From an uncultured Gammaproteobacteria bacterium (GTDB lineage: Bacteria > Pseudomonadota > Gammaproteobacteria > UBA9214): DNA of 64,000 nt. Both the position numbers and the translations under genes were made by a program. Below the pieces are notes generated by a model. It had not been told where the DNA came from. It did not search any database and was given only the letters and a program-made list of their open reading frames with translations. Shown piece after piece: positions 947 through 56,390 of this stretch. Every line of letters begins with the position of its first letter. Position 1 is the stretch's first letter. The stretch lies in NCBI GenBank assembly GCA_963753755.1, contig CAVWDM010000013.1:281055-345054 (forward strand), in the 5' to 3' direction.

Positions 947-2182
947 ATGTATAAAAAAGTACTACTCCTGGTCGTTGGTCTGTTCCTGTGTTTCACCTCC
1001 GCCTACGCTGAAAAGGGAGCAATCGATTTTGCGTCTTATGAGTGGACACTGATTAATGAGGAAGCCCGGTGGGCACCTCGGGCGGGGCTTCAGGTCATCA
1101 ATTTAAGAAATCGCTTCTACCTGATGGGCGGACGGACACCGCGGCCACCAAGCTTTCCACCTATTCCTGGCGACAGTGAAATATGGGGTGATGTCTGGAT
1201 GAGCGATGACAAAGGCGCATCCTGGCAGAGAATTCTGGAAACTAATGATGAGGAACACTGGCCTGCTCGTGCCTATTTCCAGGCTGTAAAAAAAGGCAGA
1301 TATATGTACATACTGGGAGGTCAGAACTTCAAGTTGGAACAGAATAATTGCCCGCCCTTCGTGCAGGATTGTCCGCCCTTTGTATCATCCTCTGATTTCT
1401 TCAATGATGTCTGGCGCAGCCGTGACGGAATTCATTGGATGCAGATGACCGAAGCTGCTCCATGGGCCGGGCGTGCGGGCCTGAGCAGCGTCGTGCACAA
1501 GGGCGAGATCTTTATTATGGGCGGTTCATTCAATGACGATCCAGCTGTCATAGGAGGACCACCGACGAGGGTCTATTTCAATGATGTTTGGAAATCGCGT
1601 AACGGTCGTGACTGGGTAAAGCTCACGGATAATGCACCCTGGGAACCCAGGGCGGGCGCAATTACGGTCGTCAAGAATGGTTACATTTACCTTTTGGGTG
1701 GAGAGGATGGATTTACCTGCCTGCCCGATTCACCGCGCTGTCCACCGTACTACAACGACGTGTGGCGAACCCGTGACGGTGCTAACTGGGAACTGGTAAC
1801 GGCATCTGCAGACTGGGCACCACGTCCCGGGCATCAGGTCGTGGTGCTGCTGAACCATTTCATCCTCTTCGGTGGTTTCGGGCTCAGCGATGATCCAAGA
1901 GATCCTTTCAAAGCCGCAAACCCTATGGATGTCTGGGTAAGCAAGAATGGAGCCGATTGGTCAAAGGTAAGTGACTCGCCCTGGAATGCTGCTACGCCAG
2001 AGGAAATCAAATACGATTTCGACGCCCTTGCTGTGAAAGGTGGCAAAGGCGGTCAACGTCCCTCAATCTTTACCTTTGGTGGTGATCGCGAAACCTTTGA
2101 TTTCACCGACCCATTCAACTTCCTCAATGTTGATAATGATGTGTGGCGTTTTTCGCCACCGCTCTGGATGTCAAAGCCGTGA
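947..2182 (+). CDS. secreted Kelch/galactose-oxidase-like beta-propeller repeat protein
   Basis: 411-aa ORF with a signal peptide. It has about 6 repeats of the motif W-x-P/A-R-A-G ... (F/Y)(I/L)(L/M)GG, which is characteristic of kelch-type propeller blades. Confidence 0.7.
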   Translation: MYKKVLLLVVGLFLCFTSAYAEKGAIDFASYEWTLINEEARWAPRAGLQVINLRNRFYLMGGRTPRPPSFPPIPGDSEIWGDVWMSDDKGASWQRILETNDEEHWPARAYFQAVKKGRYMYILGGQNFKLEQNNCPPFVQDCPPFVSSSDFFNDVWRSRDGIHWMQMTEAAPWAGRAGLSSVVHKGEIFIMGGSFNDDPAVIGGPPTRVYFNDVWKSRNGRDWVKLTDNAPWEPRAGAITVVKNGYIYLLGGEDGFTCLPDSPRCPPYYNDVWRTRDGANWELVTASADWAPRPGHQVVVLLNHFILFGGFGLSDDPRDPFKAANPMDVWVSKNGADWSKVSDSPWNAATPEEIKYDFDALAVKGGKGGQRPSIFTFGGDRETFDFTDPFNFLNVDNDVWRFSPPLWMSKP

Positions 2183-2671
2183 AGCCTTTTCCTGTGAATA
2201 GTCACCCTATCTGAATAGTGGTTTGAATTTGGACACCAGTCACTATTCGCCTGCACCGCATTGCGGGGTTTCTATCAACCAGGGAAGGTCTGCTTATTTC
2301 CGGTAGGCGAGGTAAGAAAGAAGTATCAGAACGGCAAATTCTGCTGCATTTTCACCGTTCGCAGTCCGCACGGGAATGACAAGTTGTTGACGGTTTTCCC
2401 CTTGGCCGGCGGCACCAGCAACAGGAATCCACAGGACAACGAACGGCTACTTGCTGTCCGCAATGCGACATAGGGACTGATTCAAGATAAGAAAATGCTA
2501 AACAGCGGGAGCCAAATGAGACGCTCACGAAATTTATCCTGACGGCAGTTTCCAAGGTTGCGCGACATAATGCCGCACTCTCCAGTGCCAACATTTTGAT
2601 TAGCATCAATTACATATTTGATTCCATATGTGATGATTTACTTCACGGTAATCTTAACCAAGAGGGTATGT

Positions 2672-3016
2672 ATGATGAAATCACGTAACTTGAGAAATTG
2701 TTTGGCAACTGTAACTTTGGTTGTATTTACCAGTGTAGCGGCAGCGGCCGGCCCGGGAGCAGGTAGTGGCAGAGGTGGTGGCCAAGGTCAGAGTATGCAG
2801 GGCGGTGGCGGCCAGGGCTCTGGTATGAATCAAGGTCAGAGTTACGGACAGGGCCGGGGGCAAGGACAGGGTTATGAGCAAGACCAAAGCTCCGGGCAAG
2901 GGCAAGGGCAAGGGCAAGGACAAGGACAAGGACAGGGTAAGGGGGCTGGTAACGGTGGGCAAAAGCAGTACCGTCATCAGAATCAGAACCAGTACGGGCA
3001 GGGCCAGAACCGTTAG
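2672..3016 (+). CDS. secreted low-complexity Gly/Gln-rich protein with GQGQ repeats
   Basis: ORF with RBS AAGAGGG and start MMKSRNL. Signal-peptide-like N-terminus, followed by (GQ)n / GQGQS repeats up to the stop. Confidence 0.5.
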   Translation: MMKSRNLRNCLATVTLVVFTSVAAAAGPGAGSGRGGGQGQSMQGGGGQGSGMNQGQSYGQGRGQGQGYEQDQSSGQGQGQGQGQGQGQGKGAGNGGQKQYRHQNQNQYGQGQNR

Positions 3017-3198
3017 CTGGTAAGAATATAATCCTGTTTGCCGACATTGATGAAGCAACTGTTTCCGGTGTGGTGAGCATCAATGGCTAACCTGCGAGCC
3101 AAATACCACGTTCTCGGAACAACTGACTACCTGACGGGAACGTCCGGTTCTGCAAAGCGGACACTGGTCTGCATCTCAATTCATATCGTTTAACGTTG

Positions 3199-3555
3199 CT
3201 AAACGTCGTGTTCTTCGGACCAATTCTTGAGTTGTTCGAGTATTCCAAGAGCTGATTGACCAAAGGGAGTGATCTCGTAAGTTACCGCTATTGGTCGAGA
3301 ACTTTGTACCTTGCGTTTCACCAGTTTCAGGTCTTCCAGTTCGCGCAGTCTTTGAGTCACCATCTTTTTACTTGCACCACCGAGTTGTCGTGCCAGGTCG
3401 TTGAATCTCACGGGTCCGTCTTTCAGATGCCAGAGGATCGAGCCTTTCCACTTTCCGCCGATAATCCGCATGCCCCGTTCTATAGCGCAGGGTTCGGCGC
3501 AGGCATTTTGGACAGACTTTTTTCCGCGATAGTCTGTTTTGATTCGGGCTTTCAT
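3199..3555 (-). CDS. HxlR-family winged-helix transcriptional regulator
   Basis: 118-aa protein. It has the HxlR-type motifs (CAIERGMRIIGGKWKGSILWHL...VRFNDL...GASKKMVTQRLRELEDLKLV) and lies divergent to an MdaB-like oxidoreductase, which is the classic arrangement. Confidence 0.8.
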   Translation of the reverse strand: MKARIKTDYRGKKSVQNACAEPCAIERGMRIIGGKWKGSILWHLKDGPVRFNDLARQLGGASKKMVTQRLRELEDLKLVKRKVQSSRPIAVTYEITPFGQSALGILEQLKNWSEEHDV

Positions 3556-3658
3556 TATCTCTAACCAAATAGCAGGTTACTAAAAGTAAACTAGTTGCAA
3601 TATGTATACAGATTACCAAAATAGCATAGATCAGTAACCCACATAAAACAGGTCATAC

Positions 3659-4249
3659 ATGAAAAACGTATTCATCATTAATGCCCACCAGCCCTGGCCG
3701 TTTTCAGAGGGTAAATTAAATGCCGCTGTGGCCGATCTGGCCAAAACCGTTTTCATGGATCAGGAATTTGAGATTCGTACAACCAACATAGTAGATGGCT
3801 ATAAGGTAGAGGAAGAATTGGAAAAACATCAGTGGGCAGATGTCATCATCCTTCAGACTCCGGTGAACTGGATGGGTGTGCCCTGGTCCTTCAAGAAATA
3901 CATGGACGAGGTTTACACGGCCGGCATGGATGGAAGCCTGTGCAATGGCGATGGGCGCAGCCGGGAGGACACCAGCCGACATTACGGCTCGGGAGGCACC
4001 CTGAAGGGCAGGAAGTACATGCTGTCACTCACCTTTAATGCTCCCGACGATGCATTTGATGACAATAATCAGTATCTGTTCGGCGGCAAGGGCATGGATG
4101 ATCTATTCTTTCCGATGCATATGAATTTACGTTTCTTCGGGATGGAACCTTTGAAAACCTTCGCCTGTCTGGATGTGCTGAAGAACCCCCAGATCGAGAA
4201 CGACTTCATCCGTTACCGGGTACACCTGTGTGAACAGTTCGGCTTCTGA
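3659..4249 (+). CDS. mdaB: flavodoxin-like NAD(P)H:quinone oxidoreductase, MdaB family
   Basis: 196 aa. The N-terminus [21 protein letters not shown] and overall length match the MdaB/NQO family. It is divergent from the HxlR regulator. Confidence 0.75.
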
Positions 4250-4257
4250 TTGAGGGG

Positions 4258-4671
4258 ATGCATGCTATGCCGGATCAATACCACGTCGAATGTGACTGTA
4301 AATCAGTCAAGTTAAGCCTAAACGGTGAACCCAGAGTTCGTGGATTCTGCCACTGCGAGGATTGCCGGGAGTTATTGAAGATTCCCTATCACTCAGTGAC
4401 GGCTTGGGAGGAAGATCAGATCACTGTGGATCAAGGGGTCGACAAATTGGTTGTCTACCAGCACCCCACGAAGCGGATGAAGCGGTTTTATTGTCAAAAC
4501 TGTGGTGAAACGCTGTTCAACTCAAACGCCATGGACTGGCGTATTGTCTCTCAATTGCTGGTCAGGAAGTGCTATGGAGGGGATTTACCTGAATCTCTGC
4601 AGTCAAAAATGCATTTCTTCTACGGCAGGCGAATTGTCGATATAAACGATGACCTGCCCAAGCGAGACTAG
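4258..4671 (+). CDS. GFA-family (CENP-V / glutathione-dependent formaldehyde-activating-like) zinc-binding protein
   Basis: 137 aa with conserved Cys clusters (CDC...CHCEDC...CQNCG) typical of the GFA domain. Confidence 0.7.
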   Translation: MHAMPDQYHVECDCKSVKLSLNGEPRVRGFCHCEDCRELLKIPYHSVTAWEEDQITVDQGVDKLVVYQHPTKRMKRFYCQNCGETLFNSNAMDWRIVSQLLVRKCYGGDLPESLQSKMHFFYGRRIVDINDDLPKRD

Positions 4672-4714
4672 AGACGGAGATAAAAAATCTGCAATGAAGA
4701 CTCTCTAGTATCAT

Positions 4715-5794
4715 TTGGAGCACCGCCACGCTACCTGGCTGGAGCTTTTCTTCGATCTCGTGTTTGTCGCGAGCATAGGTATCGTGACTCACAATTTGGC
4801 TCACACCCATGATGGCCATGTCTCAATTAGTGAATTGCTGCTGTTTCCCGTTGAACTGATCCCGATCTGGTGGATTTGGGCGACACATACGCTCTATTCG
4901 AACCGTTTCGATACGCACAGCAAGGCGCACCGTCTTGCGACACTGACGATCATGTTTCCGATGATTGCGATGGTCGCATATCTGGGTGAAAAGCTTCTTC
5001 AAAATTTTGCTGCGTTCATTGCTTTTTACGTGATCATTCGCCTGATTCTTGCGGGGCTGTACCTTGGGTCAAATAAAAAACACGGTCTTTCAACGGACTT
5101 TACCCGAACAGCCGCAACAATCACTTTGACCGGAGTCGGTATTTCCCTGCTTGCGCTGGTATTCAATACCCCGATCACGGAGGCCATATTCCTCGGTGGT
5201 ATTGCTTTCGAGATGGTGGCCATGATCGTCCTTGTTCGCCGACCTTCAGTAGTTGCCGTGCATCGGAGCCATCTGGTCGAGAGAATTGGGCTGCTGGTCA
5301 TCATTCTGCTCGGTGAATCAGTGATCAGCCTTGTGGGAAGTCTGCGGGGAATCGAATGGAATGAGCATAATATGATCGCGGCAATGACCGGTTTTATTAT
5401 GATTGGCTGTATCTGGTGGATTTTTTTCGACAGTTTCGACGTGCTGGAGCGAACAAGAAGAATTGAGCGAGGATTGATCCTGTTGTATTCACAAGTTCTG
5501 TTTATTGCGGGTTTGCTTATTCTTGCCAATCTGATTCGGCACGCAATACTTGGTGATCTGGGTATGGCTGATTTCCGGCTGCTTGCCGTGTCCGGAATGA
5601 TCTTGTTGTATTTGGGTAAACAGTCCCTTTATTTCCATGCGTTCCCACCGTATCGCATCAATATTCTGATTAACAGTTCGATTTGTGTCGCGATTACAGT
5701 TGCCGCTACTTTCTTGCCCAGACCCGAATATGCTCTGATGGGGATGACCTTCGGTATGTTTTTTATTCATATTCGAATCTACGCTGGACCTTGA
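4715..5794 (+). CDS. low-temperature-requirement A (LtrA) family membrane protein
   Basis: 359-aa polytopic membrane protein starting with the ATWLELFFDLVFVASI motif characteristic of LtrA (PF06772-like). Confidence 0.65.
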   Translation: MEHRHATWLELFFDLVFVASIGIVTHNLAHTHDGHVSISELLLFPVELIPIWWIWATHTLYSNRFDTHSKAHRLATLTIMFPMIAMVAYLGEKLLQNFAAFIAFYVIIRLILAGLYLGSNKKHGLSTDFTRTAATITLTGVGISLLALVFNTPITEAIFLGGIAFEMVAMIVLVRRPSVVAVHRSHLVERIGLLVIILLGESVISLVGSLRGIEWNEHNMIAAMTGFIMIGCIWWIFFDSFDVLERTRRIERGLILLYSQVLFIAGLLILANLIRHAILGDLGMADFRLLAVSGMILLYLGKQSLYFHAFPPYRINILINSSICVAITVAATFLPRPEYALMGMTFGMFFIHIRIYAGP

Positions 5795-6343
5795 CCAAAG
5801 ATGTTACTGAATATCTGGTTGTTGATTCCTAGTTTTTGATCACGCGACGATGTCCGCTTCTGGCCGAAGTTACCGCTAGCTAATAATACAAAGCAGTGAC
5901 CGTAGCCTGACAGTGAACGGCAGGTTACTGCTCTAACTCGGACTAGCAAACTGATTCTATATTAGGAAAATAGCAAGGACGGTAGATGTTAAGGGTTGTA
6001 AGATGCCTGCCCCCAACCGCAGACCTGTCAGCGAACGCAAACCCTTAGCGGGCAGGCGTCTGACAAGCCTCGAGGGAGGAAACCGCGGGAGGAAGCCACG
6101 CAGTCATGGAAGGCAGTCGCGCTATGGGGATTTGAGTAGTGACTTTTCGGTATAACTCGGCAAAATAAATCATCATCGATATGCCGATGTACATTGTCGG
6201 ATCTTTTGCGTACTGATGGCACCTGTTTTGCTGCTCACGGTGGATGCAAAAGAGCGCACATTCATAACGACAACAAAGCGGTGACCTTCCCGGGCCAGGC
6301 CGGTAATGATAAGGCGGGTGGAATGAGTCGGTAGCGGCGGCAG

Positions 6344-7552
6344 TCATGATTCGCCAAAATGTCTGGGTGGTGCGCGGGGCAATTGCCCGCGCTCGAAGGA
6401 CTCAATGATAATCATCGGGGCGCCGCAGTCCGGGCAGACATAGGTCACTGACTCATCACTACCGTCTGCGGTATTCGCACCGTTCGTTTCTGCATCAGTA
6501 GGCGCATCCGTTTCTTTGCACATCAGCAGTTCACGCGCTTGCGCCAAGTTATCCTTGCGTGCAGTGTTGGCGATCAATCCGTAGTGGCGGATGCGGTGGA
6601 AGCCCGAGGGCAGGACATGGAGCAGGAAGCGACGGATGAACTCATCAGGGACGAGCGTCATGGTTTTGTGACGGTAACGTTCCTTCGCCCGGTAGTCTTT
6701 CCACTTGAAGGTGACGCCCTGTTCGTCCATCGCGATCAGCCGGCTGTTGGCGATCGCAACCCGATGGGTATAGCGGGAGAGATAAGCCAGTACAGCGTCC
6801 GGTCCGGCAAAGGGACGTTTGGCGTAGACAACCCACGTGCATTGGCGCAAGGGTTTGAGCCAATGGCTGAAGGACTTTGTCTCAGTGAGCGCTTGATGCT
6901 CACCGAAGAACTGCAGCTTGCCGGCACGGTATGCGTCGCTGAGCTTCTCGAGGAACAACCGCCGGAACAGTTGCGAGAGTACACGCACGGGCAGGAAGAA
7001 GCCCGGCCGGCAGGCGACCCAACGTTCACCATCGAGCGACAGGCCACCCCCGGGGACGATGCCGTGCACATGGGGGTGATGGGTCATCGCCGAGCCCCAG
7101 GTGTGCAAGACCAGGGTCGCGCCGATACGGGCACCCAGATGTTTGGGATCGGCGGCAATCGTGAGCAAGGTCTCGGCAGCGGCCTTGAACAGCAGGCCGT
7201 AGACCACCGCCTTGTTGTACCAGGCGATGTCGCGGATCGGTGCTGGCAGGGTGAAGACCAGGTGATAGTAGTCCACGGGTAGCAGGTCTGACTGACGGGC
7301 TTCCAGCCAGCGCCGGGCTGCACTGGCCTGGCACTTCGGACAGTGCCGGTTACGGCAGGAGTTGTAGGCGATCTGCGTATGTTCACAGGCCGGGCACTGC
7401 AGCACATGACCGCCCAGCGCTGCACTGCGGCAGCGTTCGATCGCCGACATGACCCTGAGCTGGCCGAGACTGAGGTGTCCGGCCTGCGCGTGACGCCATG
7501 CCGGCCCGTGGGCGCGGAAGATATCCGCGACCTCCAGGGCGGGGCGAGACAT
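6344..7552 (-). CDS. IS91-family rolling-circle (Y2/HUH) transposase
   Basis: 402 aa. N-terminal zinc-binding transposase domain (CPACEH...CRNRHCPKCQ) followed by the conserved IS91 Y2-transposase core (HTWG...HPHVH, YLSRYTHRVAI). Confidence 0.85.
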   Translation of the reverse strand: MSRPALEVADIFRAHGPAWRHAQAGHLSLGQLRVMSAIERCRSAALGGHVLQCPACEHTQIAYNSCRNRHCPKCQASAARRWLEARQSDLLPVDYYHLVFTLPAPIRDIAWYNKAVVYGLLFKAAAETLLTIAADPKHLGARIGATLVLHTWGSAMTHHPHVHGIVPGGGLSLDGERWVACRPGFFLPVRVLSQLFRRLFLEKLSDAYRAGKLQFFGEHQALTETKSFSHWLKPLRQCTWVVYAKRPFAGPDAVLAYLSRYTHRVAIANSRLIAMDEQGVTFKWKDYRAKERYRHKTMTLVPDEFIRRFLLHVLPSGFHRIRHYGLIANTARKDNLAQARELLMCKETDAPTDAETNGANTADGSDESVTYVCPDCGAPMIIIESFERGQLPRAPPRHFGES

Positions 7553-7562
7553 GCCCGTGCGC

Positions 7563-8441
7563 TTAGGCGGGCGGTCTCAACGACTCCAGTGGACTGACAA
7601 CCTCGCGCAGAACATCGGTGGCCACCTGGGCATAGAGGGCGGTGGTCTCAAGCTTCTTGTGTCCGAGCAGCACCTGGATGATGCGGATATCCACCTTCTG
7701 CTCCAGCAGGTGGGTGGCGTAGCTGTGACGCAGCGTGTGCATCGAGACGCGCTTGTCGATGTCTGCGGCGGCGGCTGCCGCGTGACAGATGCGATTGAGC
7801 TGACGGGTGCTCAACGGGTTGATCGGGTTCTGTCCGGGGAACAGCCAGCCCCCGTCGAGCATCTTCCCTTTGGCATGGGCGGCTTGCCACCAGACACGCA
7901 AGCACTTGAGTAGCACCGGTGAGAGCATCGCATAGCGGTCCTTGTGGCCCTTGCCTTGTTCAACACGCAGGGTCATGCGGGTGCTGTCGATATCACCCAC
8001 CTTCAACGCGACGACCTCGCTGGCCCGCAGGCCGGCACCGTAGGCCACCGATAAGACCGCCTGATACTTCGGTTTGCCGGCGGCATCAATCAGACGTGCG
8101 ACTTCCTCGCGGCTCAACACCACCGGCAGTTTGCGTGGTTCACGCACCGAACTCATCCTGGCCATTACCTCTGCATGATCCAGTGTCACGCCAAAGAAGA
8201 AGCGTAATGCCGTGATCGTATGGTTGAGCATGATACTGGAGACGCCGGTCTCGACCAGATGCAACTGATAGCGGCGTAAATCTTCCGGTGTTGCGGTATC
8301 GGGTGATCGGCCCAGAAAGCAGGTGAGGTTGATCACTGCCCGGAGATAGTTGCTCTGGGTCTTGGGTGAGAGTTTGCGCAACGCCATATCTTCGATCATG
8401 CGTTGGCGTAACGGACTGATGGGCTTGGTAGTGTGGGACAT
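7563..8441 (-). CDS. tyrosine site-specific recombinase (phage-integrase family) co-transcribed upstream of the IS91 transposase
   Basis: XerD-like N-terminal SAM-like domain and C-terminal catalytic motifs (R...HTLRHSYATHLLE...LGH...Y). The ATG at 8441 is preceded by an AGGAG RBS; the ORF track extends to 8480. Confidence 0.8.
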   Translation of the reverse strand: MSHTTKPISPLRQRMIEDMALRKLSPKTQSNYLRAVINLTCFLGRSPDTATPEDLRRYQLHLVETGVSSIMLNHTITALRFFFGVTLDHAEVMARMSSVREPRKLPVVLSREEVARLIDAAGKPKYQAVLSVAYGAGLRASEVVALKVGDIDSTRMTLRVEQGKGHKDRYAMLSPVLLKCLRVWWQAAHAKGKMLDGGWLFPGQNPINPLSTRQLNRICHAAAAAADIDKRVSMHTLRHSYATHLLEQKVDIRIIQVLLGHKKLETTALYAQVATDVLREVVSPLESLRPPA

Positions 8442-30088: not shown

Positions 30089-30175
30089 TGGTGCCGAGGA
30101 GAGGACTTGAACCTCCACGGGGTTTCCCCCACTAGCACCTGAAGCTAGCGTGTCTACCAATTTCACCACCTCGGC
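30089..30175 (-). tRNA. tRNA-Leu (anticodon CAG), 87 nt with long variable arm and encoded CCA
   Basis: The reverse complement folds as a class II tRNA. It has the acceptor GCCGAGG/CCTCGGC, anticodon stem CTAGC/GCTAG with loop TTCAGGT, a long variable arm, T-arm GGTTCAAGTCC, and terminal CCA. Confidence 0.85.
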
Positions 30176-50210: not shown

Positions 50211-51395
50211 CTACAGCAACAACAGGCGTTTCATCACTTTAAGAATGTCCTTGAGCGGTAGTTGCGTGGTACCTGCAGCCACCAGTGGCAGTAGTGCAGC
50301 AACCGAGAGCGGCAACAGCACTTCTCGGCTGATCAGCTTGCCCGATAGTTTGAGGGTTGCCGCATAGGCCTTGGCCGGGTCGGAAATATCCCCGGTGTTT
50401 ACCTTGTCGCTGTCTTCGCTTGCAGCAATGTTCCTGCCCAGCAGTTCACGCTCTACGGCGCGTTGATGTTGTGTGGCGCGAGCGCTATAGGCAAGCAGCG
50501 TTTGTTCCTTCAGTTTGCCTATCGGCTTGCTAAATGCCTGCAGCGGGATGGCGAACAACACCAGTATCAGCAGTAACCAGCCAGCCATGATAAAGCCATA
50601 GGTGGTTGTTGTAATCGTGCCGTGCAGGAGTTCATGAGCCACGGCTGCACCCAGTACACAACTGATAGCAAACACAAACATGGTACAGGTGTTCGGATAA
50701 GTTCCCAGAAAGCCCAGGCCACCGTGGCTATCGGGGTGCGTCGCCACCAGGCGCAGTTCAAGTGTCGCCAGTTCGCGTAACAGCAGTCCCCATACACACA
50801 AACGCCACAGCCAGCGCAGTAACAGAAAAGAGAACAGCGTGTTGCTGACAATGATTGCCCACCAGCCAGCAAGGGTCAGGCTGTTGTGACCCTGTACGAG
50901 TTGTACCGCCCAGGTGGTGGTATCGAGCGTTATCTGTCTTTGGTAAAGAACCAGTGATAAGAATGCGGCGATCAGCAGGCAGATGGCCTCAGCGGTTTTT
51001 GCGTCCCGGCGTTTCAGTGCGTGTGTAACGGCGCTGGCAGCGGCCACAAATGAACCGGGTGCCAGCAGTGGTGCGCGTACAAACTGGAGCAGATAGATTC
51101 GCAGCTGCTTTTCAAGCCTTTTTTCCATTAACAGGAACAGGGCGATTGCGACAAAGAATCGTGCCCATACACTCAGGTCGAGCAGATAGGGGCTGTCAGT
51201 GGCCGGCCCGTGAGCACTGCCGGCAATGATGCTGAATACCAGTGGCACGCCCCAGGCGAGTGCCACAAACAGTAGTGCCCGGGAACCGGCACGGAATGCA
51301 TCCTCGTGCAACAGGCCCAGTTGTCGCTGCAGGGTATAAAATGGCCCGCCATGCGCCAGCAGGAATTCATTGAGCTTTTTTTCTTCCGGTGTCAT
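50211..51395 (-). CDS. polytopic membrane protein of unknown function
   Basis: 403-aa ORF, with probable start at MTPEEKK; multiple TM helices; no family recognised. Confidence 0.5.
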   Translation of the reverse strand: MTPEEKKLNEFLLAHGGPFYTLQRQLGLLHEDAFRAGSRALLFVALAWGVPLVFSIIAGSAHGPATDSPYLLDLSVWARFFVAIALFLLMEKRLEKQLRIYLLQFVRAPLLAPGSFVAAASAVTHALKRRDAKTAEAICLLIAAFLSLVLYQRQITLDTTTWAVQLVQGHNSLTLAGWWAIIVSNTLFSFLLLRWLWRLCVWGLLLRELATLELRLVATHPDSHGGLGFLGTYPNTCTMFVFAISCVLGAAVAHELLHGTITTTTYGFIMAGWLLLILVLFAIPLQAFSKPIGKLKEQTLLAYSARATQHQRAVERELLGRNIAASEDSDKVNTGDISDPAKAYAATLKLSGKLISREVLLPLSVAALLPLVAAGTTQLPLKDILKVMKRLLLL

Positions 51396-51586
51396 GGATG
51401 ATAGTCCCCTTATAGACTGCATACGTTCTATTGAAACAATCCTGCAGACGATGAGCGAATGACCATAGGTTTTCTCCCCTGGTTATTTGTCTGGAACTTT
51501 GGTGGCTGCCTGGGTCGCTTGCAGCTGCAATACCACTTATAGAATCCTGATATATCGTAGCATCAATATATCCTGCAGCTGCTATC

Positions 51587-51937: not shown

Positions 51938-52099
51938 TGTTATGGATCACAAACCAGTCTTCTGACAGGTGAAAGCACGCAGTTCAACCGGGTGTGGCCA
52001 GAAAACTTTTTACAGTAAGTGCTTCATGGCACAGGTAAATCAGCCTTAAGTCAGTATATTTACGTACGTATCAGTGTTTGGTGATGTAACACTGGCGGG

Positions 52100-52448
52100 T
52101 GTAGTATTTTTCCAGAATAAGTCAATAGAGATGATAACAACGGGTAATAACCAGAAATTAACCGGTACTTGAAGTGAGTTTGGGAATAATGCAGGCAAGT
52201 CTATTGTGAAATTGGTCGTGAGACAGCGAGGCCGCCGCCGCTCAGGGTTGCCTGTAGAATTTCCGTTAACGGATTCCCGGGGACTTTGGATTACCCGTGA
52301 TCGACGGCGGGTGCCTGATCGACGCAAGTTAAAACATGACATTGAGGATCTGAAAGTCATACTCTCAAAAATGGGCAGGGACTGACTGGCATGCGCGCCT
52401 GATAGACAGCGACGCAACAACAAACGACCTACAGGTCGTTTTTTTTGT
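52100..52448 (+). ncRNA. candidate sRNA (about 300–350 nt) ending at the intrinsic terminator; identity unknown
   Basis: ORF-free plus-strand region with a strong terminator. Only tiny ORFs (at most 6 codons) are present. The 5' end was not determined. Confidence 0.3.
52425..52448 (+). terminator. strong rho-independent terminator (ACGACCT-AC-AGGTCGT + T8) ending an unannotated plus-strand transcript
   Basis: A perfect 7-bp GC-rich stem is followed by 8 T. No plus-strand CDS lies upstream for about 500 nt. Confidence 0.6.
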
Positions 52449-53243
52449 GTGCGCCCAGCATGGGCGCGATTCTGGAGGTGGAAGTCCTCCGTGAGTTGAC
52501 CACAGCGAACGAAGTGAAGCGCAACTGCATGAGGGTGACCGATTGTGGGGAGGAAGCGTGGAGCGAAGCCGTGAGCCGATGGACAAGAACCGGATACGAG
52601 GCGGTGCCGAGCAGGGTGAGCGGGCATGAAATCGCGAAGCTCTTGTGGTCAAGGCTCAGGCGGCGTAAATCCGGCGGTTGTGCGGTGAAGGATCGCGTTC
52701 TTACCTGGGGAGATCTCGCCTTGTGCCTGAAAGGGCGACGGTGATGAACCGGAGCGAGAAGTCAGCAGAGGTCATAGTAGCTGCCAGCATGGAGCGAAGG
52801 GCCGAAGGAATAGGAGAGGGAGTCCTCTGGTTCTCGGATTTGGAATGTCTCAGATGTTCGCAGAAGCGAAGCTCGTCGTTATGGCTTGTAAGGTGAAGCC
52901 CGATAAGCTACGGCAGCGAGAAACCGAATCGGGCGGATCAGAAACAAGCAACCTCAGGAGGTGTGCCGGGATTGACTCAAGTGCGCCGACCTCAACTATT
53001 CCAACCGCCCGGTGCGGACCCGCATGCCGGGTGGTGTGGGAGGGGCTCGGTCAGGTTTCCTGACCGCCCCTATCCCGATTCAGGGGATATGCACCGTCCC
53101 TGTTGCGGATAGCAGGGATCTGACTACCGGGGGTGTGCCGTGGGCCGGTTGCCGGTGACTGCTGCGGTGTGTACAGGCAGCCTCTGACGCAGGACGGCAT
53201 ATCGGTTAAACTTTGCCATTATTTTGATTCCGGAGTCAGCTGC

Positions 53244-54107
53244 ATGAAGTTCACCATTGACGAGTTCCGCGCCTGGAAGAATAAAAGCATTACCCTGCTG
53301 GGTATGTCCGGGGTGGGCAAGACTCACCTGTCAATGCTGCTGCGGGCAAACAACTGGTTTCACTACTCGGGCGACTATCGCATTGGCACCCGTTACCTGG
53401 ATGAACCGATCATGGACCTGATCAAGCAGCAGGCGATGCAGACGCCGTTTTTGCGTGAACTGCTGCGTCGCGACTGGATCCAGATTCGCAACAATATCAA
53501 GGTCAACGACCTCGGGCCGGTAATGAGTTTCGTTGGCAAGCTTGGCAATCCCGAGCTTGGCGGCGTGCCGCTGGATGAATTTTCTGGTCGCCAGGCACTG
53601 TACCGTGAGGCAGAAATCGCGGCCATGCAGGATGTGCCCGTGTTTATCCGCAAGGCGCACGAGATTTACGGTTACGACAACTTCGTCAACGACGTTGGCG
53701 GCAGCCTCTGTGAACTTGATGAACCGTCCGTGATCGACCTGCTGGTGGAGTACTCGCTGGTCCTGTACATCCGTGTCACCGAGAAGGCCGAGGAGGAGGC
53801 GCTCATCAGCCGTGCACAGAGTAGCCCCAAACCGTTGTATTACCGCCCCGAATTTCTTGCCGAGCAGATGCAGCAGTATCTTGGTGAGAACAACCTGGAG
53901 TACGCGGCAGAGGTGGATCCGGACGATTTCTGTCGCTGGGTGTTCCCGCGCCTGTTCCATTCGCGTGTGCCGCGTTACGAGGCCATTGCGCGACCGCACG
54001 GCTACACCGTCACCTCGCACGAGGTGGCGGCGGTGCGCGACGAACAGGACTTTCTCGACCTGCTGGAAAACGCCATCGCCCGCAAGGCGAATGAACCGCA
54101 GGAGTAG
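53244..54107 (+). CDS. P-loop NTPase / kinase-like protein of unknown specificity
   Basis: Walker A LLGMSGVGKTHLS near the N-terminus, 287 aa. GGAG RBS 10 nt upstream. First gene of a tight three-gene operon. The ORF track starts at 53133. Confidence 0.6.
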   Translation: MKFTIDEFRAWKNKSITLLGMSGVGKTHLSMLLRANNWFHYSGDYRIGTRYLDEPIMDLIKQQAMQTPFLRELLRRDWIQIRNNIKVNDLGPVMSFVGKLGNPELGGVPLDEFSGRQALYREAEIAAMQDVPVFIRKAHEIYGYDNFVNDVGGSLCELDEPSVIDLLVEYSLVLYIRVTEKAEEEALISRAQSSPKPLYYRPEFLAEQMQQYLGENNLEYAAEVDPDDFCRWVFPRLFHSRVPRYEAIARPHGYTVTSHEVAAVRDEQDFLDLLENAIARKANEPQE

Positions 54108-54112
54108 CCGCC

Positions 54113-55201
54113 ATGCCGATTGTCGCCCACAATGATCTACCGACCTTCCAGCGGCTGCGCCAGGAAGGCCAGACTATTCTCGCGCCCGGCCGTGCCCGGC
54201 ACCAGACCATTCGCGAGTTGCACATCGGTGTGCTCAACATGATGCCCGATGCCGCACTGGCTGCGACCGAGCGCCAGTTCTTCCGACTGGTGGGGGAGAG
54301 CAACCCCATTGCGCAGTTCTACCTGCACCCGTTCACGCTGCAGGAGCTGCCGCGCGGCGAGCAGGCACATGCACACATCGAGCGTTACTATGACACTTTC
54401 GAGCAGATACGCGCCGAGGGTCTGGATGCGCTGATTATTACCGGCGCCAATGTCACCCATCCTGACCTGTCGCAGGAATCCTTCTGGGAGCCGCTGCGCC
54501 AGGTGTTTGACTGGGCGCAGCAGAATGTGACCTCGGTGCTGTGTTCCTGCCTCGCCACCCACGCGGCGATGCAGTTTCATCATGGCCAGAAACGTCGTGC
54601 CATGCCTGCCAAGCGCTGGGGCGTGTATCCACACCGAGTGATCCAGACAACGCATCCGCTGGTAAACGACGTCAATACACAGTTTGACGTACCGCATTCA
54701 CGCTTTAACAATATCAGCGCCGCGCAATTCAATGAGGCCGGGCTGCACGTGCTGGTGGAGAGCATCGAGGCGGGGGTACACCTCGCGGTCAGTGCGGACG
54801 GTATCCGCGTCGTCTATTTCCAGGGTCACCCGGAGTATGACACCGTGTCCCTGCTGAAGGAGTACAAGCGCGAGGTGCGGCGTTTTTCCGCCGGCGAGCG
54901 CAGTGATTATCCGCCGTTTCCGGAAAACTATTTCAAGCCGCGTGAACAGGCCATCTTGAACGAGTATCGCTTGCGCCTCGATGCCGCACAGACAGCGGGC
55001 AATCCGGTGCCTGAGTTTCCGGAACAGCTGGTTGCCGGGCGCATCGACAATACCTGGCACGATGCTGCCGAGGGTATCGTCGGTAACTGGATTGGCCTGG
55101 TTTACCAGTTGACCCATGAAGAGCGGAGGCTGCCCTTCATGGACGGGGTGGACCTGCACAACCCGCTCGGTCTCGACTGGATCGCCGAGTCACACCCATA
55201 G
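54113..55201 (+). CDS. MetA-family (HTS) homoserine O-acyltransferase homologue with a C-terminal extension of about 50 aa
   Basis: The N-terminus aligns to E. coli MetA (MPIVAHNDLPTFQRLRQEGQTIL...IRELHIGVLNMMPD). Catalytic Cys (CSCLA), His (VPHSRF) and the GHPEYD motif are present. Confidence 0.75.
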   Translation: MPIVAHNDLPTFQRLRQEGQTILAPGRARHQTIRELHIGVLNMMPDAALAATERQFFRLVGESNPIAQFYLHPFTLQELPRGEQAHAHIERYYDTFEQIRAEGLDALIITGANVTHPDLSQESFWEPLRQVFDWAQQNVTSVLCSCLATHAAMQFHHGQKRRAMPAKRWGVYPHRVIQTTHPLVNDVNTQFDVPHSRFNNISAAQFNEAGLHVLVESIEAGVHLAVSADGIRVVYFQGHPEYDTVSLLKEYKREVRRFSAGERSDYPPFPENYFKPREQAILNEYRLRLDAAQTAGNPVPEFPEQLVAGRIDNTWHDAAEGIVGNWIGLVYQLTHEERRLPFMDGVDLHNPLGLDWIAESHP

Positions 55202-55226
55202 CATCCCCGGTACAAGGAGCAAACAC

Positions 55227-56390
55227 ATGCAGTCCGGTCCAAGAGAAATTATCACCCCGTTCAGACCCATCCCGCTGGATGTGCCGAAGGCCATGGCGCC
55301 CAACGAGTTTTTCAACAGCACCGAGAATCTCGATGACCTGATGCACAACAACGGGCTGTTGACCAATCCGGAGAACCTGCTGCTGTACCGCAAGGCGCTG
55401 GGTCACAGCCGCGAGTTCGATACCTCGATTATCTACAACAGTTCAAAGTGCATACTCAACCCGCTGGGCCGGCCGGTACGCCGTACCCAGGTGCCGGCCG
55501 ATGTGAAACATATCTGGAACCGTATGAACCAGATCATTATCGATTACATGGTGGAACGTTACCCGGACCCGGAGTCACACCTGCTGCTTGCGGGCGAGGC
55601 CAGCCTTGATGCTACCTGGCCGCTGACGTCGCCCGGGGTGCCCAGTATTCGCATGCTGCACAATCATTTCATCGTCTTCAGCATGGACGAGCTGCGCACT
55701 GCACAGCCGGCCGACCCGAAAAACCCGAATCTCACCGACGGTGGCCAGCACAGCCTCTTCGAGGCCTACATGCACGATGTCTACCGCGAGTTCTTCGATC
55801 GCGCACTGGACCTGGAGATCCTCTGGCCGGTGGGCGAGGCGGGCTCACGCATCGAGTTGACCGGTTATCCGCAGGGGCTGCCGAGCTGGGAAATCCAGGG
55901 CGGTATAGCAGCACTGGAGGAGGTCGGTTTCTGGAGCGAGTATGACGAGATTCTGAAGGGCTTCATGGATTTCTACCGGTCTTTCTTCAGCCAGGTATCG
56001 ACGCGCAATGCGCCAATGCTGGATGATCTGTACTTCCCGGATCATGTCGAGAATGTGCTGCTATTTAATAATGATTTCCTGAAGACGGCGAAGAAGGTCC
56101 GCGATAACTGTATCGTGGATGCCGCCTATGCCAATGCCATACGCTGGCAGCCGGCCTTCAAGCAGCTCATTTACCGTAACGACGAGGACAAGCTGATTGT
56201 CACCATCAGCCAGAACTCGATCGGTAACGCCATTACCGAGCTGCTTGGCGTGGTGGTCAAGCGCGTTCCCGATGCGCAGGCTTACGAGCGCTTCGAACCG
56301 CAGTTGATAGAGCAGTTGCTGGAAGTGCGCCGCCGTCTCATCGAGGCTGACCTCGGCGATGCTATCGAAACACCCTACTGGCCGGGCTGA
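55227..56390 (+). CDS. 388-aa protein of unknown function, third gene of the operon
   Basis: Strong RBS AAGGAGC 7 nt upstream. No recognisable motifs. Soluble-looking composition. Confidence 0.55.
   Translation: MQSGPREIITPFRPIPLDVPKAMAPNEFFNSTENLDDLMHNNGLLTNPENLLLYRKALGHSREFDTSIIYNSSKCILNPLGRPVRRTQVPADVKHIWNRMNQIIIDYMVERYPDPESHLLLAGEASLDATWPLTSPGVPSIRMLHNHFIVFSMDELRTAQPADPKNPNLTDGGQHSLFEAYMHDVYREFFDRALDLEILWPVGEAGSRIELTGYPQGLPSWEIQGGIAALEEVGFWSEYDEILKGFMDFYRSFFSQVSTRNAPMLDDLYFPDHVENVLLFNNDFLKTAKKVRDNCIVDAAYANAIRWQPAFKQLIYRNDEDKLIVTISQNSIGNAITELLGVVVKRVPDAQAYERFEPQLIEQLLEVRRRLIEADLGDAIETPYWPG

Follow-up and report, generated by a model that had tools for sequence, protein, structure and literature searches.

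The stretch analysed here (the window) comprises 64,000 nt of an uncultured Gammaproteobacteria bacterium of the lineage UBA9214 (GenBank assembly GCA_963753755.1, contig CAVWDM010000013.1, positions 281,055 to 345,054 of the forward strand). In it, a small open reading frame (ORF) with an intrinsic terminator is followed by a region devoid of obvious genes (52450-53240), and this by an operon whose first genes encode a P-loop protein and a homoserine O-succinyltransferase. A first-pass annotation, made from the letters alone, had proposed a large structured RNA for the region and had suspected a group II intron. Positions 52449-53079 of the plus strand are a complete bacterial class C (IIC) group II intron RNA of 631 nt, devoid of an ORF, and the remaining 164 nt are ordinary intergenic DNA and the conserved leader of the downstream operon. 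What was an unexplained 630-nt "ORF-free" gap is now a defined mobile element, very probably a non-autonomous (ORF-less) class C group II intron. The locus is built as follows.

52422 to 52446 (+): intrinsic terminator of the upstream small ORF, with a stem-loop at 52422-52441 plus a T-run (terminator scan)
52446 to 52448 (+): intron-binding site 1 (IBS1), TGT, the last three bases of the 5′ exon, which pair with exon-binding site 1 (EBS1), AUG
52449 to 53079 (+): the intron, from GUGCG to ...CCCGAU, 631 nt, delimited by Rfam matches and shared boundaries
52449 to 52709 (+): domain I (3′ limit approximate), from the RF02001 match and a consensus fold with compensatory pairs
52551 to 52555 (+): AGGAA bulge motif in domain I, within GGGGAGGAAGCG
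52626 to 52628 (+): EBS1 (AUG), which follows GGGC without a gap in the loop of the distal domain I hairpin, from its pairing with exon positions −1 to −3
52710 to 52803 (+): domains II and III (about 52710-52763 and about 52770-52803), from RF01998 and helices 17-21 of the consensus, the labels being our own assignment
52807 to 53002 (+): domain IV, about 195 nt, structured and without ORF, helices 22-32 with many compensatory changes
53004 to 53035 (+): domain V, the catalytic hairpin, from the RF00029 match and helix 33
53037 to 53077 (+): domain VI with the bulged branch-point A53072, unpaired in the consensus and 7 nt from the 3′ end
53080 (+): IBS3, the first base of the 3′ exon, T here and in 15 of 18 non-redundant copies
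53180 to 53243 (+): conserved leader or possible promoter of the P-loop/homoserine O-succinyltransferase operon, outside the intron; 11 related loci are similar in DNA to the window from 53180-53182 onwards

Scanned with Rfam at gathering thresholds, the element is matched by group-II-D1D4-3 (RF02001; 110 bits at 52529-52700) and group-II-D1D4-1 (RF01998; 46 bits at 52717-52802). A sensitive scan of 52300-53400, with E up to 10, adds RF00029, the model of domains V and VI, which scores 36.9 bits (local E 2e-5) at 53003-53079, just short of its 40-bit cut-off. Standard annotation gives only the two partial matches because the domain V/VI score falls below the gathering cut-off. Together with the RNAalifold consensus of 18 homologs, the models recover domains I to VI. 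The RNA opens with GUGCG at 52449-52453, directly after the T-run of the terminator, and closes with ...GAU at 53079. In alignments with other genomes, similarity to ORF-less homologs begins exactly at GTGCG and stops at ...CCTATCCCGAT. The 3′ end is fixed at 53079 because in Polaromonas, where two related introns stand in tandem, the second starts directly after the ...GCCGAT of the first.

The suspicion of a large structured RNA of group II type is thus borne out by the three Rfam matches, by strong covariation among 18 diverged homologs and by the lack of a protein signal, whereas several particulars of the first-pass annotation have to be corrected. The GTGCG start that it recognised is indeed the intron 5′ end, located at 52449-52453 and not near 52461, and the RNA ends at 53079 instead of extending to 53240. 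It had found no convincing domain V, which is present at 53004-53035 and is of the short class C type. The plus-strand terminator that it reported is supported by the terminator scan (hairpin 52422-52441, then the T-run), its role as insertion target having been overlooked together with domain V and the exact boundaries. As for the two hairpins that it cited, CCCCT..AGGGG is not a real pairing, since CCCCT forms the 3′ strand of domain VI and has GGGAGGGG (53038-53045) as its partner; CCCTG..CAGGG exists, at 53098-53117, outside the element. The remarks on composition were correct: the plus strand of 52449-53079 is 58.8% purine against 51.2% in the whole window (a share reached by only 19 of 634 same-sized tiles), G[CT]GAAG occurs seven times in it where the window rate predicts 0.47, and both occurrences of GGAGCGA[AG]G in the window fall within it. 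The absence of ORFs holds for the plus strand, with none longer than 99 aa in 52450-53240, but a minus-strand ORF of 193 aa (52046-52627) reaches into the region. The ORFs that overlap it, five in number, are all without a Pfam match.

Class C introns are characterized by an abbreviated size, by a domain V whose distal stem has 2 bp fewer than that of IIA and IIB introns, by CGC in place of the AGC triad, by a bulge with conserved AGGAA, by an EBS1-IBS1 pairing of 3-4 bp and by a terminator stem-loop that takes the place of IBS2, EBS2 being absent (PMC1702495). The window element displays the published RNA hallmarks of the class, the absence of EBS2 being judged only from the T-run and hairpin upstream of IBS1, which are all that precedes IBS1 in the family copies. 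Its domains I-III take up about 355 nt. In domain V the CGC triad lies at 53006-53008, with a G53007·U53032 wobble, an AU bulge at 53024-53025, a GACC loop and a distal stem of 3 bp against the canonical 5 bp. The AGGAA motif hardly varies within the family and is left unpaired by the consensus, its place relative to the ε′ region being judged from the alignment. The insertion lies 7 nt after the terminator stem and in the same orientation as the upstream gene; the terminator stem-loop is the 5′-exon target of the intron, in place of the IBS2 of IIA and IIB introns. Insertion downstream of terminators is a published property of IIC introns (PMC1702495), and a D1D4-3 match followed by D1D4-1 after a terminator was likewise read as IIC in a phage survey (PMC12350094). 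A further feature of the class is an encoded reverse transcriptase (RT)/maturase without endonuclease, and autonomous relatives of the element do encode RVT_1 and GIIM without endonuclease. The window element encodes no such protein: no RT is found in the 64-kb window, and tblastn with two intron-encoded proteins (IEPs) of relatives detects no remnant in domain IV. Being class C in structure but without RT/maturase, the RNA is therefore a non-autonomous derivative. The window holds no second intron copy. The short, non-GNRA domain V had been considered atypical and a possible reason why the family was overlooked, an idea that was dropped, since a shortened distal stem together with CGC is what IIC introns normally show (PMC1702495).

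The fold was studied on 18 non-redundant copies, 75-94% identical, from which RNAalifold derives a consensus of 188 pairs. In it, 97.4% of the alignment cells are paired, against about 40% with the partners slid, a comparison that favours the consensus because the structure was predicted from the same alignment. The count of double-side changes, less affected by this circumstance, gives 62 of the 188 pairs, against 30.4 in shuffled alignments (none of 500 reaching the observed value) and 7-18 in slid ones. Domain V (helix 33) is essentially invariant in these diverged copies, and domain VI shows a compensatory G-C to C-G swap (GGGAG/CUAUCCC versus GGCAG/CUAUGCC) in five of the 18. The covariation across the copies argues that the RNA fold is maintained by purifying selection over its whole length, domain IV included. 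The window copy, with four of the 188 pairs unpaired where the family ranges from one to 11, looks intact when set on the predicted fold.

The ORF-less form is not peculiar to the window. Species-representative genomes were scanned with a 25-base pattern specific to domain IV, which matched 46 stretches in 24 assemblies of alpha-, beta- and gammaproteobacteria. The carriers include Neorhizobium, Rhizobium, Burkholderia, Bordetella, Cupriavidus, Chitinimonas, Dechloromonas, Thiobacillus, Pseudomonadales and other gammaproteobacterial metagenome-assembled genomes (MAGs). With few exceptions these stretches are complete copies without ORF, which measure 625-655 nt and share 75-87% identity with the window copy, and domain IV is homologous in all ORF-less copies. 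On plasmids, BLAST reveals comparably long ORF-less homologs (in Cupriavidus campinensis, two Rhizobium strains and others) next to ORF-containing relatives such as those of Polaromonas sp. JS666. The ORF-less domain IV occurs in three of 72,556 plasmids, at one place in each, and its pattern has no match among the viral sequences of IMG/VR. No RT gene is present inside the 8-kb loci around the other ORF-less copies, which adjoin unrelated genes at their different locations.

Within single genomes the copies are 99-100% identical, while their 200-nt flanks show only the background value of about 60%; four genomes contain six, five, six and two such copies. In Neorhizobium huautlense DSM 21817, a contig of 588 nt consists of intron sequence only and has about 626-fold coverage, against about 41-44-fold for other contigs, which suggests a collapsed repeat standing for some 15 genomic copies. 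The multi-copy spread is recent and took place without an encoded RT. Since the same ORF-less domain IV and the same boundaries recur in the copies of 24 assemblies, the deletion is ancestral and not local; the comparison thus indicates that the window element is not a copy decayed in situ but a member of a family that is ORF-less throughout. One ORF-less copy of Ca. Dechloromonas phosphorivorans (5578-7869 of its locus) is split at about position 77 by an IS3-family insertion sequence of 1.65 kb, with two overlapping transposase ORFs on the opposite strand.

How the copies reached their sites can be read from the exons. At about 35 independent sites, that is, for every copy with a readable upstream sequence, 7-10 nt separate a GC-rich hairpin and T-run from the copy, and the autonomous relatives are likewise inserted after terminators. 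EBS1 and the last three exon bases were compared in 37 copies: 106 of 111 positions pair, 94 of them by Watson-Crick pairs, and all three positions pair in 32 of the copies. Permutation gives a mean of 70.6 ± 4.1, and none of 10,000 permutations reaches 106. EBS1 and IBS1 vary together, as in AAC/GUU, AAG/CUU, UAA/UUA, CAG/CUG, ACG/CGU and CAA/UUG. To judge from the sequences, such matching is the signature of reverse splicing guided by each element's own RNA. Plasmid 2 of Polaromonas sp. JS666 carries a tandem of autonomous IIC introns (1756-5470), of which the second begins directly after the GAT end of the first; the EBS1 of the second, AUC, is complementary to this GAU end, and the second intron seems to have used the domain VI hairpin of the first as a terminator-like target.

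Domain IV retains traces of the protein that it once may have encoded. Its invariant blocks are GTCTCAGATG.TCGC, AGCGAAGCTCG, GGTGAAGCC and GGCAGCGAGA. In autonomous relatives (Polaromonas and three environmental contigs), CAGATG followed by a 5-bp hairpin with a tetraloop and by GGTGAAGC lies inside the first 25 or so codons of the IEP. The ORF-less family has the same arrangement of CAGATG, hairpin and GGTGAAGC, and its similarity to the relatives resumes at the IEP stop codon (TGACCTCAAC); these short nucleotide relics at the two ends of the IEP ORF are all that was seen of it, with no RT remnant detected in domain IV by tblastn. The arrangement fits one ancestral internal deletion that would have kept the IEP-start region. 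In IIA introns, DIVa is the established high-affinity binding site of the IEP (PMC2882425), and by analogy domain IV of the family probably retains an IEP-binding DIVa region.

Taking together the fold, the identical copies, the matching exons and the composition of domain IV, the family is best explained as a non-autonomous retroelement that would insert by reverse splicing and be copied in trans by the RT of a related intron. In the model that we propose, read-through of the terminator would transcribe the element, whose folding and splicing would be helped by the IEP (an RT/maturase with RVT_1 and GIIM and no endonuclease) of an autonomous IIC relative present elsewhere in the cell, docked on the retained DIVa-like block of domain IV. 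The ribonucleoprotein would then recognise single-stranded DNA bearing a terminator stem-loop, a 3-nt IBS1 and T at position +1. Finally, the RNA would reverse-splice into the recognised site and the IEP supplied in trans would make the DNA copy.

Several observations weigh against this model. No IEP able to act in trans is present in the 64-kb window or in the 8-kb loci around the copies, and a search for homologs of the Polaromonas IEP returned thousands of environmental RT/maturases, none of them linked by source name to the genomes rich in ORF-less copies. An empty site for the window insertion was not recovered among the related loci and metagenome contigs. The EBS1 of the window copy (AUG) pairs with its IBS1 (UGU) by one Watson-Crick pair and two G·U wobbles; being single in the window and dependent on wobbles for its IBS1 match, this copy may be old or now stranded. 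No alignment column of the 18 copies covaries with the +1 exon base as would an EBS3. Lastly, that the retained block is the docking site for a borrowed IEP is something we infer, by analogy only.

The main competitor is a dead relic: a deletion at this very locus would have removed the ORF of an autonomous IIC intron and left an immobile, inactive and decaying remnant. It would accord with a window that has no RT and only one copy, with the two wobbles of the IBS1 pairing and with the reviewed opinion that ORF-less bacterial introns have lost retromobility (PMC4424553). Against it stand the recurrence of one domain IV with the same boundaries in 24 assemblies, which makes the deletion ancestral, the near-identity of family copies at different sites within genomes, and the covariation, which speaks for purifying selection on the whole fold, domain IV included; the window copy is moreover paired as well as any other. 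A relic is therefore unlikely for the element as such, even if the window copy could be stranded today should its genome lack an IEP. A trans-mobilised, non-autonomous intron remains our preferred reading.

The position of the element, about 165 nt upstream of the first gene of an operon and on the same strand, raises the question of a domesticated cis-acting RNA (a leader, insulator or riboregulator) that would control the P-loop/homoserine O-succinyltransferase operon. The operon corresponds to a three-gene cluster (53244-56390) widespread in uncultured Gammaproteobacteria. It encodes a P-loop protein of 287 aa without Pfam match, named ATPase or shikimate kinase by the sources, homoserine O-succinyltransferase (PF04204) and a 387-aa protein also without Pfam match, for which the window ORF (55116-56390) is longer, the start in relatives being equivalent to about 55227. 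The closest homologs of the P-loop protein, 88-94% identical, come from metagenomes and MAGs, and the host is itself an uncultured gammaproteobacterium; exact look-ups of two of the downstream proteins gave no match. Eleven related operon loci lack the intron and have upstream spacers of only about 75-180 bp. In all 11, the 64 nt before the ATG of the P-loop gene (53180-53243) are 84-88% conserved and everything upstream differs, so that the similarity starts downstream of the element. The conserved stretch, in which CTGACG ... TAAACT can be made out by eye, is likely the leader or promoter of the operon; it goes unflagged in the promoter scan. Because the intron sits upstream of the operon's own conserved leader, it is not part of the operon regulation, and elsewhere the family adjoins unrelated genes. 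A cis-acting role is thus very unlikely, and the insertion is probably neutral for the host.

The genes upstream of the intron, 50211-51422 (−) and beyond, including a 403-aa predicted membrane protein without Pfam match, show no synteny with related contigs, which carry flavodoxin, citrate-lyase-like or IDH genes there instead. Conversely, the upstream genes of the related loci are absent from the window, and none of the metagenome contigs examined contains the terminator 21-mer. The comparison points to a rearrangement or insertion boundary somewhere before 53180, and no empty site is recoverable because the upstream neighbourhood differs between genomes. The small ORF at 52206-52385 would encode 59 aa rich in arginine (MKLVVRQRGRRRSGLPVEF...), has no Pfam match and ends 37 nt before the targeted terminator; a promoter-like site (52336-52363) lies inside it. 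Farther away, a tRNA gene of 84 nt (30092-30175, minus strand; RF00005, 54 bits) is probably of the long-variable-arm type.

The first-pass annotation had offered a heavily decayed gene as its alternative, and a related possibility is a small domain IV protein, encoded by an ORF of 69-72 aa that starts at a conserved ATG. An invariant ATG does open a frame of 59-75 codons in 11 of the 18 copies, with a similar N-terminus (MFAxAKLA...RVKP), but in the other seven the frame has only 3-44 codons, so that no reading frame of domain IV is conserved (3-75 codons over the 18 copies). The likeness of the peptides follows from the nucleotide invariance of the DIVa relic. The ORFs of the region match nothing in Pfam, tblastn reveals no RT remnant, and variation is dominated by compensatory base-pair changes, as selection at the RNA level would produce. 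Coding, past or present, has as low a probability as cis-regulation. Another class of large noncoding RNA (ROOL, GOLLD, HEARO, raiA, tmRNA or a riboswitch), suggested by the size and the GNRA-rich composition, is the least credible reading of all, none of these families being matched in the Rfam scan of 52300-53400 even at E up to 10 and matches outside group II reaching at most 16.4 bits, far under thresholds.

Among known systems, the closest in structure are class C introns of the type of B.h.I1 from Bacillus halodurans and O.i.I1 from Oceanobacillus iheyensis. The window element shares with them a compact ribozyme, the CGC triad, the short distal stem of domain V, the AGGAA bulge, a 3-bp EBS1-IBS1 pairing, a terminator stem-loop in lieu of IBS2 and insertion in sense orientation after a terminator; it differs in having no RT/maturase and, as domain IV, a structured RNA of about 195 nt. 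The autonomous IIC introns on plasmid 2 of Polaromonas sp. JS666 and those of environmental betaproteobacteria are 80-85% identical to it at the nucleotide level in domains I-III and near-identical in domain V. They also share terminator targeting, the logic of EBS1 and the CAGATG, hairpin and GGTGAAGC at the start of domain IV, but carry in that domain an IEP of 456-461 aa (RVT_1 and GIIM, no endonuclease) where the window element has none.

The best precedent for mobility is found in Thermosynechococcus elongatus, whose ORF-less TeI3 introns owe their mobility to "driver" IEPs acting in trans (Mohr et al. 2010, PMC2882425). Both there and here, ORF-less derivatives stem from a single ancestral deletion in domain IV that kept the IEP-start region, and the window family likewise shows spread to new sites with matching EBS and IBS. 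TeI3, however, is not a IIC intron, does not target terminators and is confined to one genome, whereas the window family spans at least three proteobacterial classes; mobilisation in trans is experimental for TeI3 and deduced here. Truncated IIC copies on phage-plasmids of Escherichia coli resemble the family in being ORF-less, about 80% identical in domains I-III and placed after a hairpin with a matching IBS1 (EBS1 ACA against exon TGT, by eye). They differ in their length of only about 480 nt and in lacking the domain IV of the window family. An example lies at 3004-3485 of the phage-plasmid-like E. coli ETEC1701 plasmid, beside phage lysis genes, and about 100 records of E. coli plasmids contain the derivative, which seems to represent a deletion lineage of its own and is probably the OQ555808-type phage intron of PMC12350094.

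ORF-less introns of bacteria have been reviewed as rare and deprived of retromobility (PMC4424553; PMC3245105), the only exception studied in depth belonging to one cyanobacterial genome (PMC2882425). A survey of 2022, in which families were not characterised, lists 888 IEP-less introns in a total of 13,041 (PMC8919778). Full-text searches of the literature, which did not cover Simon et al. 2008 and the Zimmerly intron database, gave no description of the present ORF-less IIC family. The kind of intron is thus known and the ORF-less IIC family appears undescribed; at the level of the family, the picture of a pan-proteobacterial IIC lineage that proliferates actively and has no RT is moderately novel.

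What this would mean for the family can be carried one step further. The copies may belong to a long-lived, horizontally spreading, non-autonomous lineage of class C comparable to short interspersed nuclear elements ("SINE-like"), with 15-25% divergence across alpha-, beta- and gammaproteobacteria, never with an RT of its own, still multiplying to some 5-15 identical copies per genome and endowed with a selected, structured domain IV that presumably captures the IEPs of autonomous IIC introns. We consider the arguments for and against this extension to be evenly balanced. If true, it would contradict the reviewed view of ORF-less bacterial introns as rare, immobile and short-lived, and would provide a natural bacterial system in which many introns rely on a shared trans-acting protein. 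The family itself shows that from class C introns there has arisen a widespread parasite of the class C machinery that has no RT, and a pan-proteobacterial lineage sharing one trans-acting protein would bear on how intron families come to need a common splicing and mobility apparatus. The same copies are useful for biochemistry as compact, natural ORF-less IIC ribozymes with a conserved candidate protein-docking domain.

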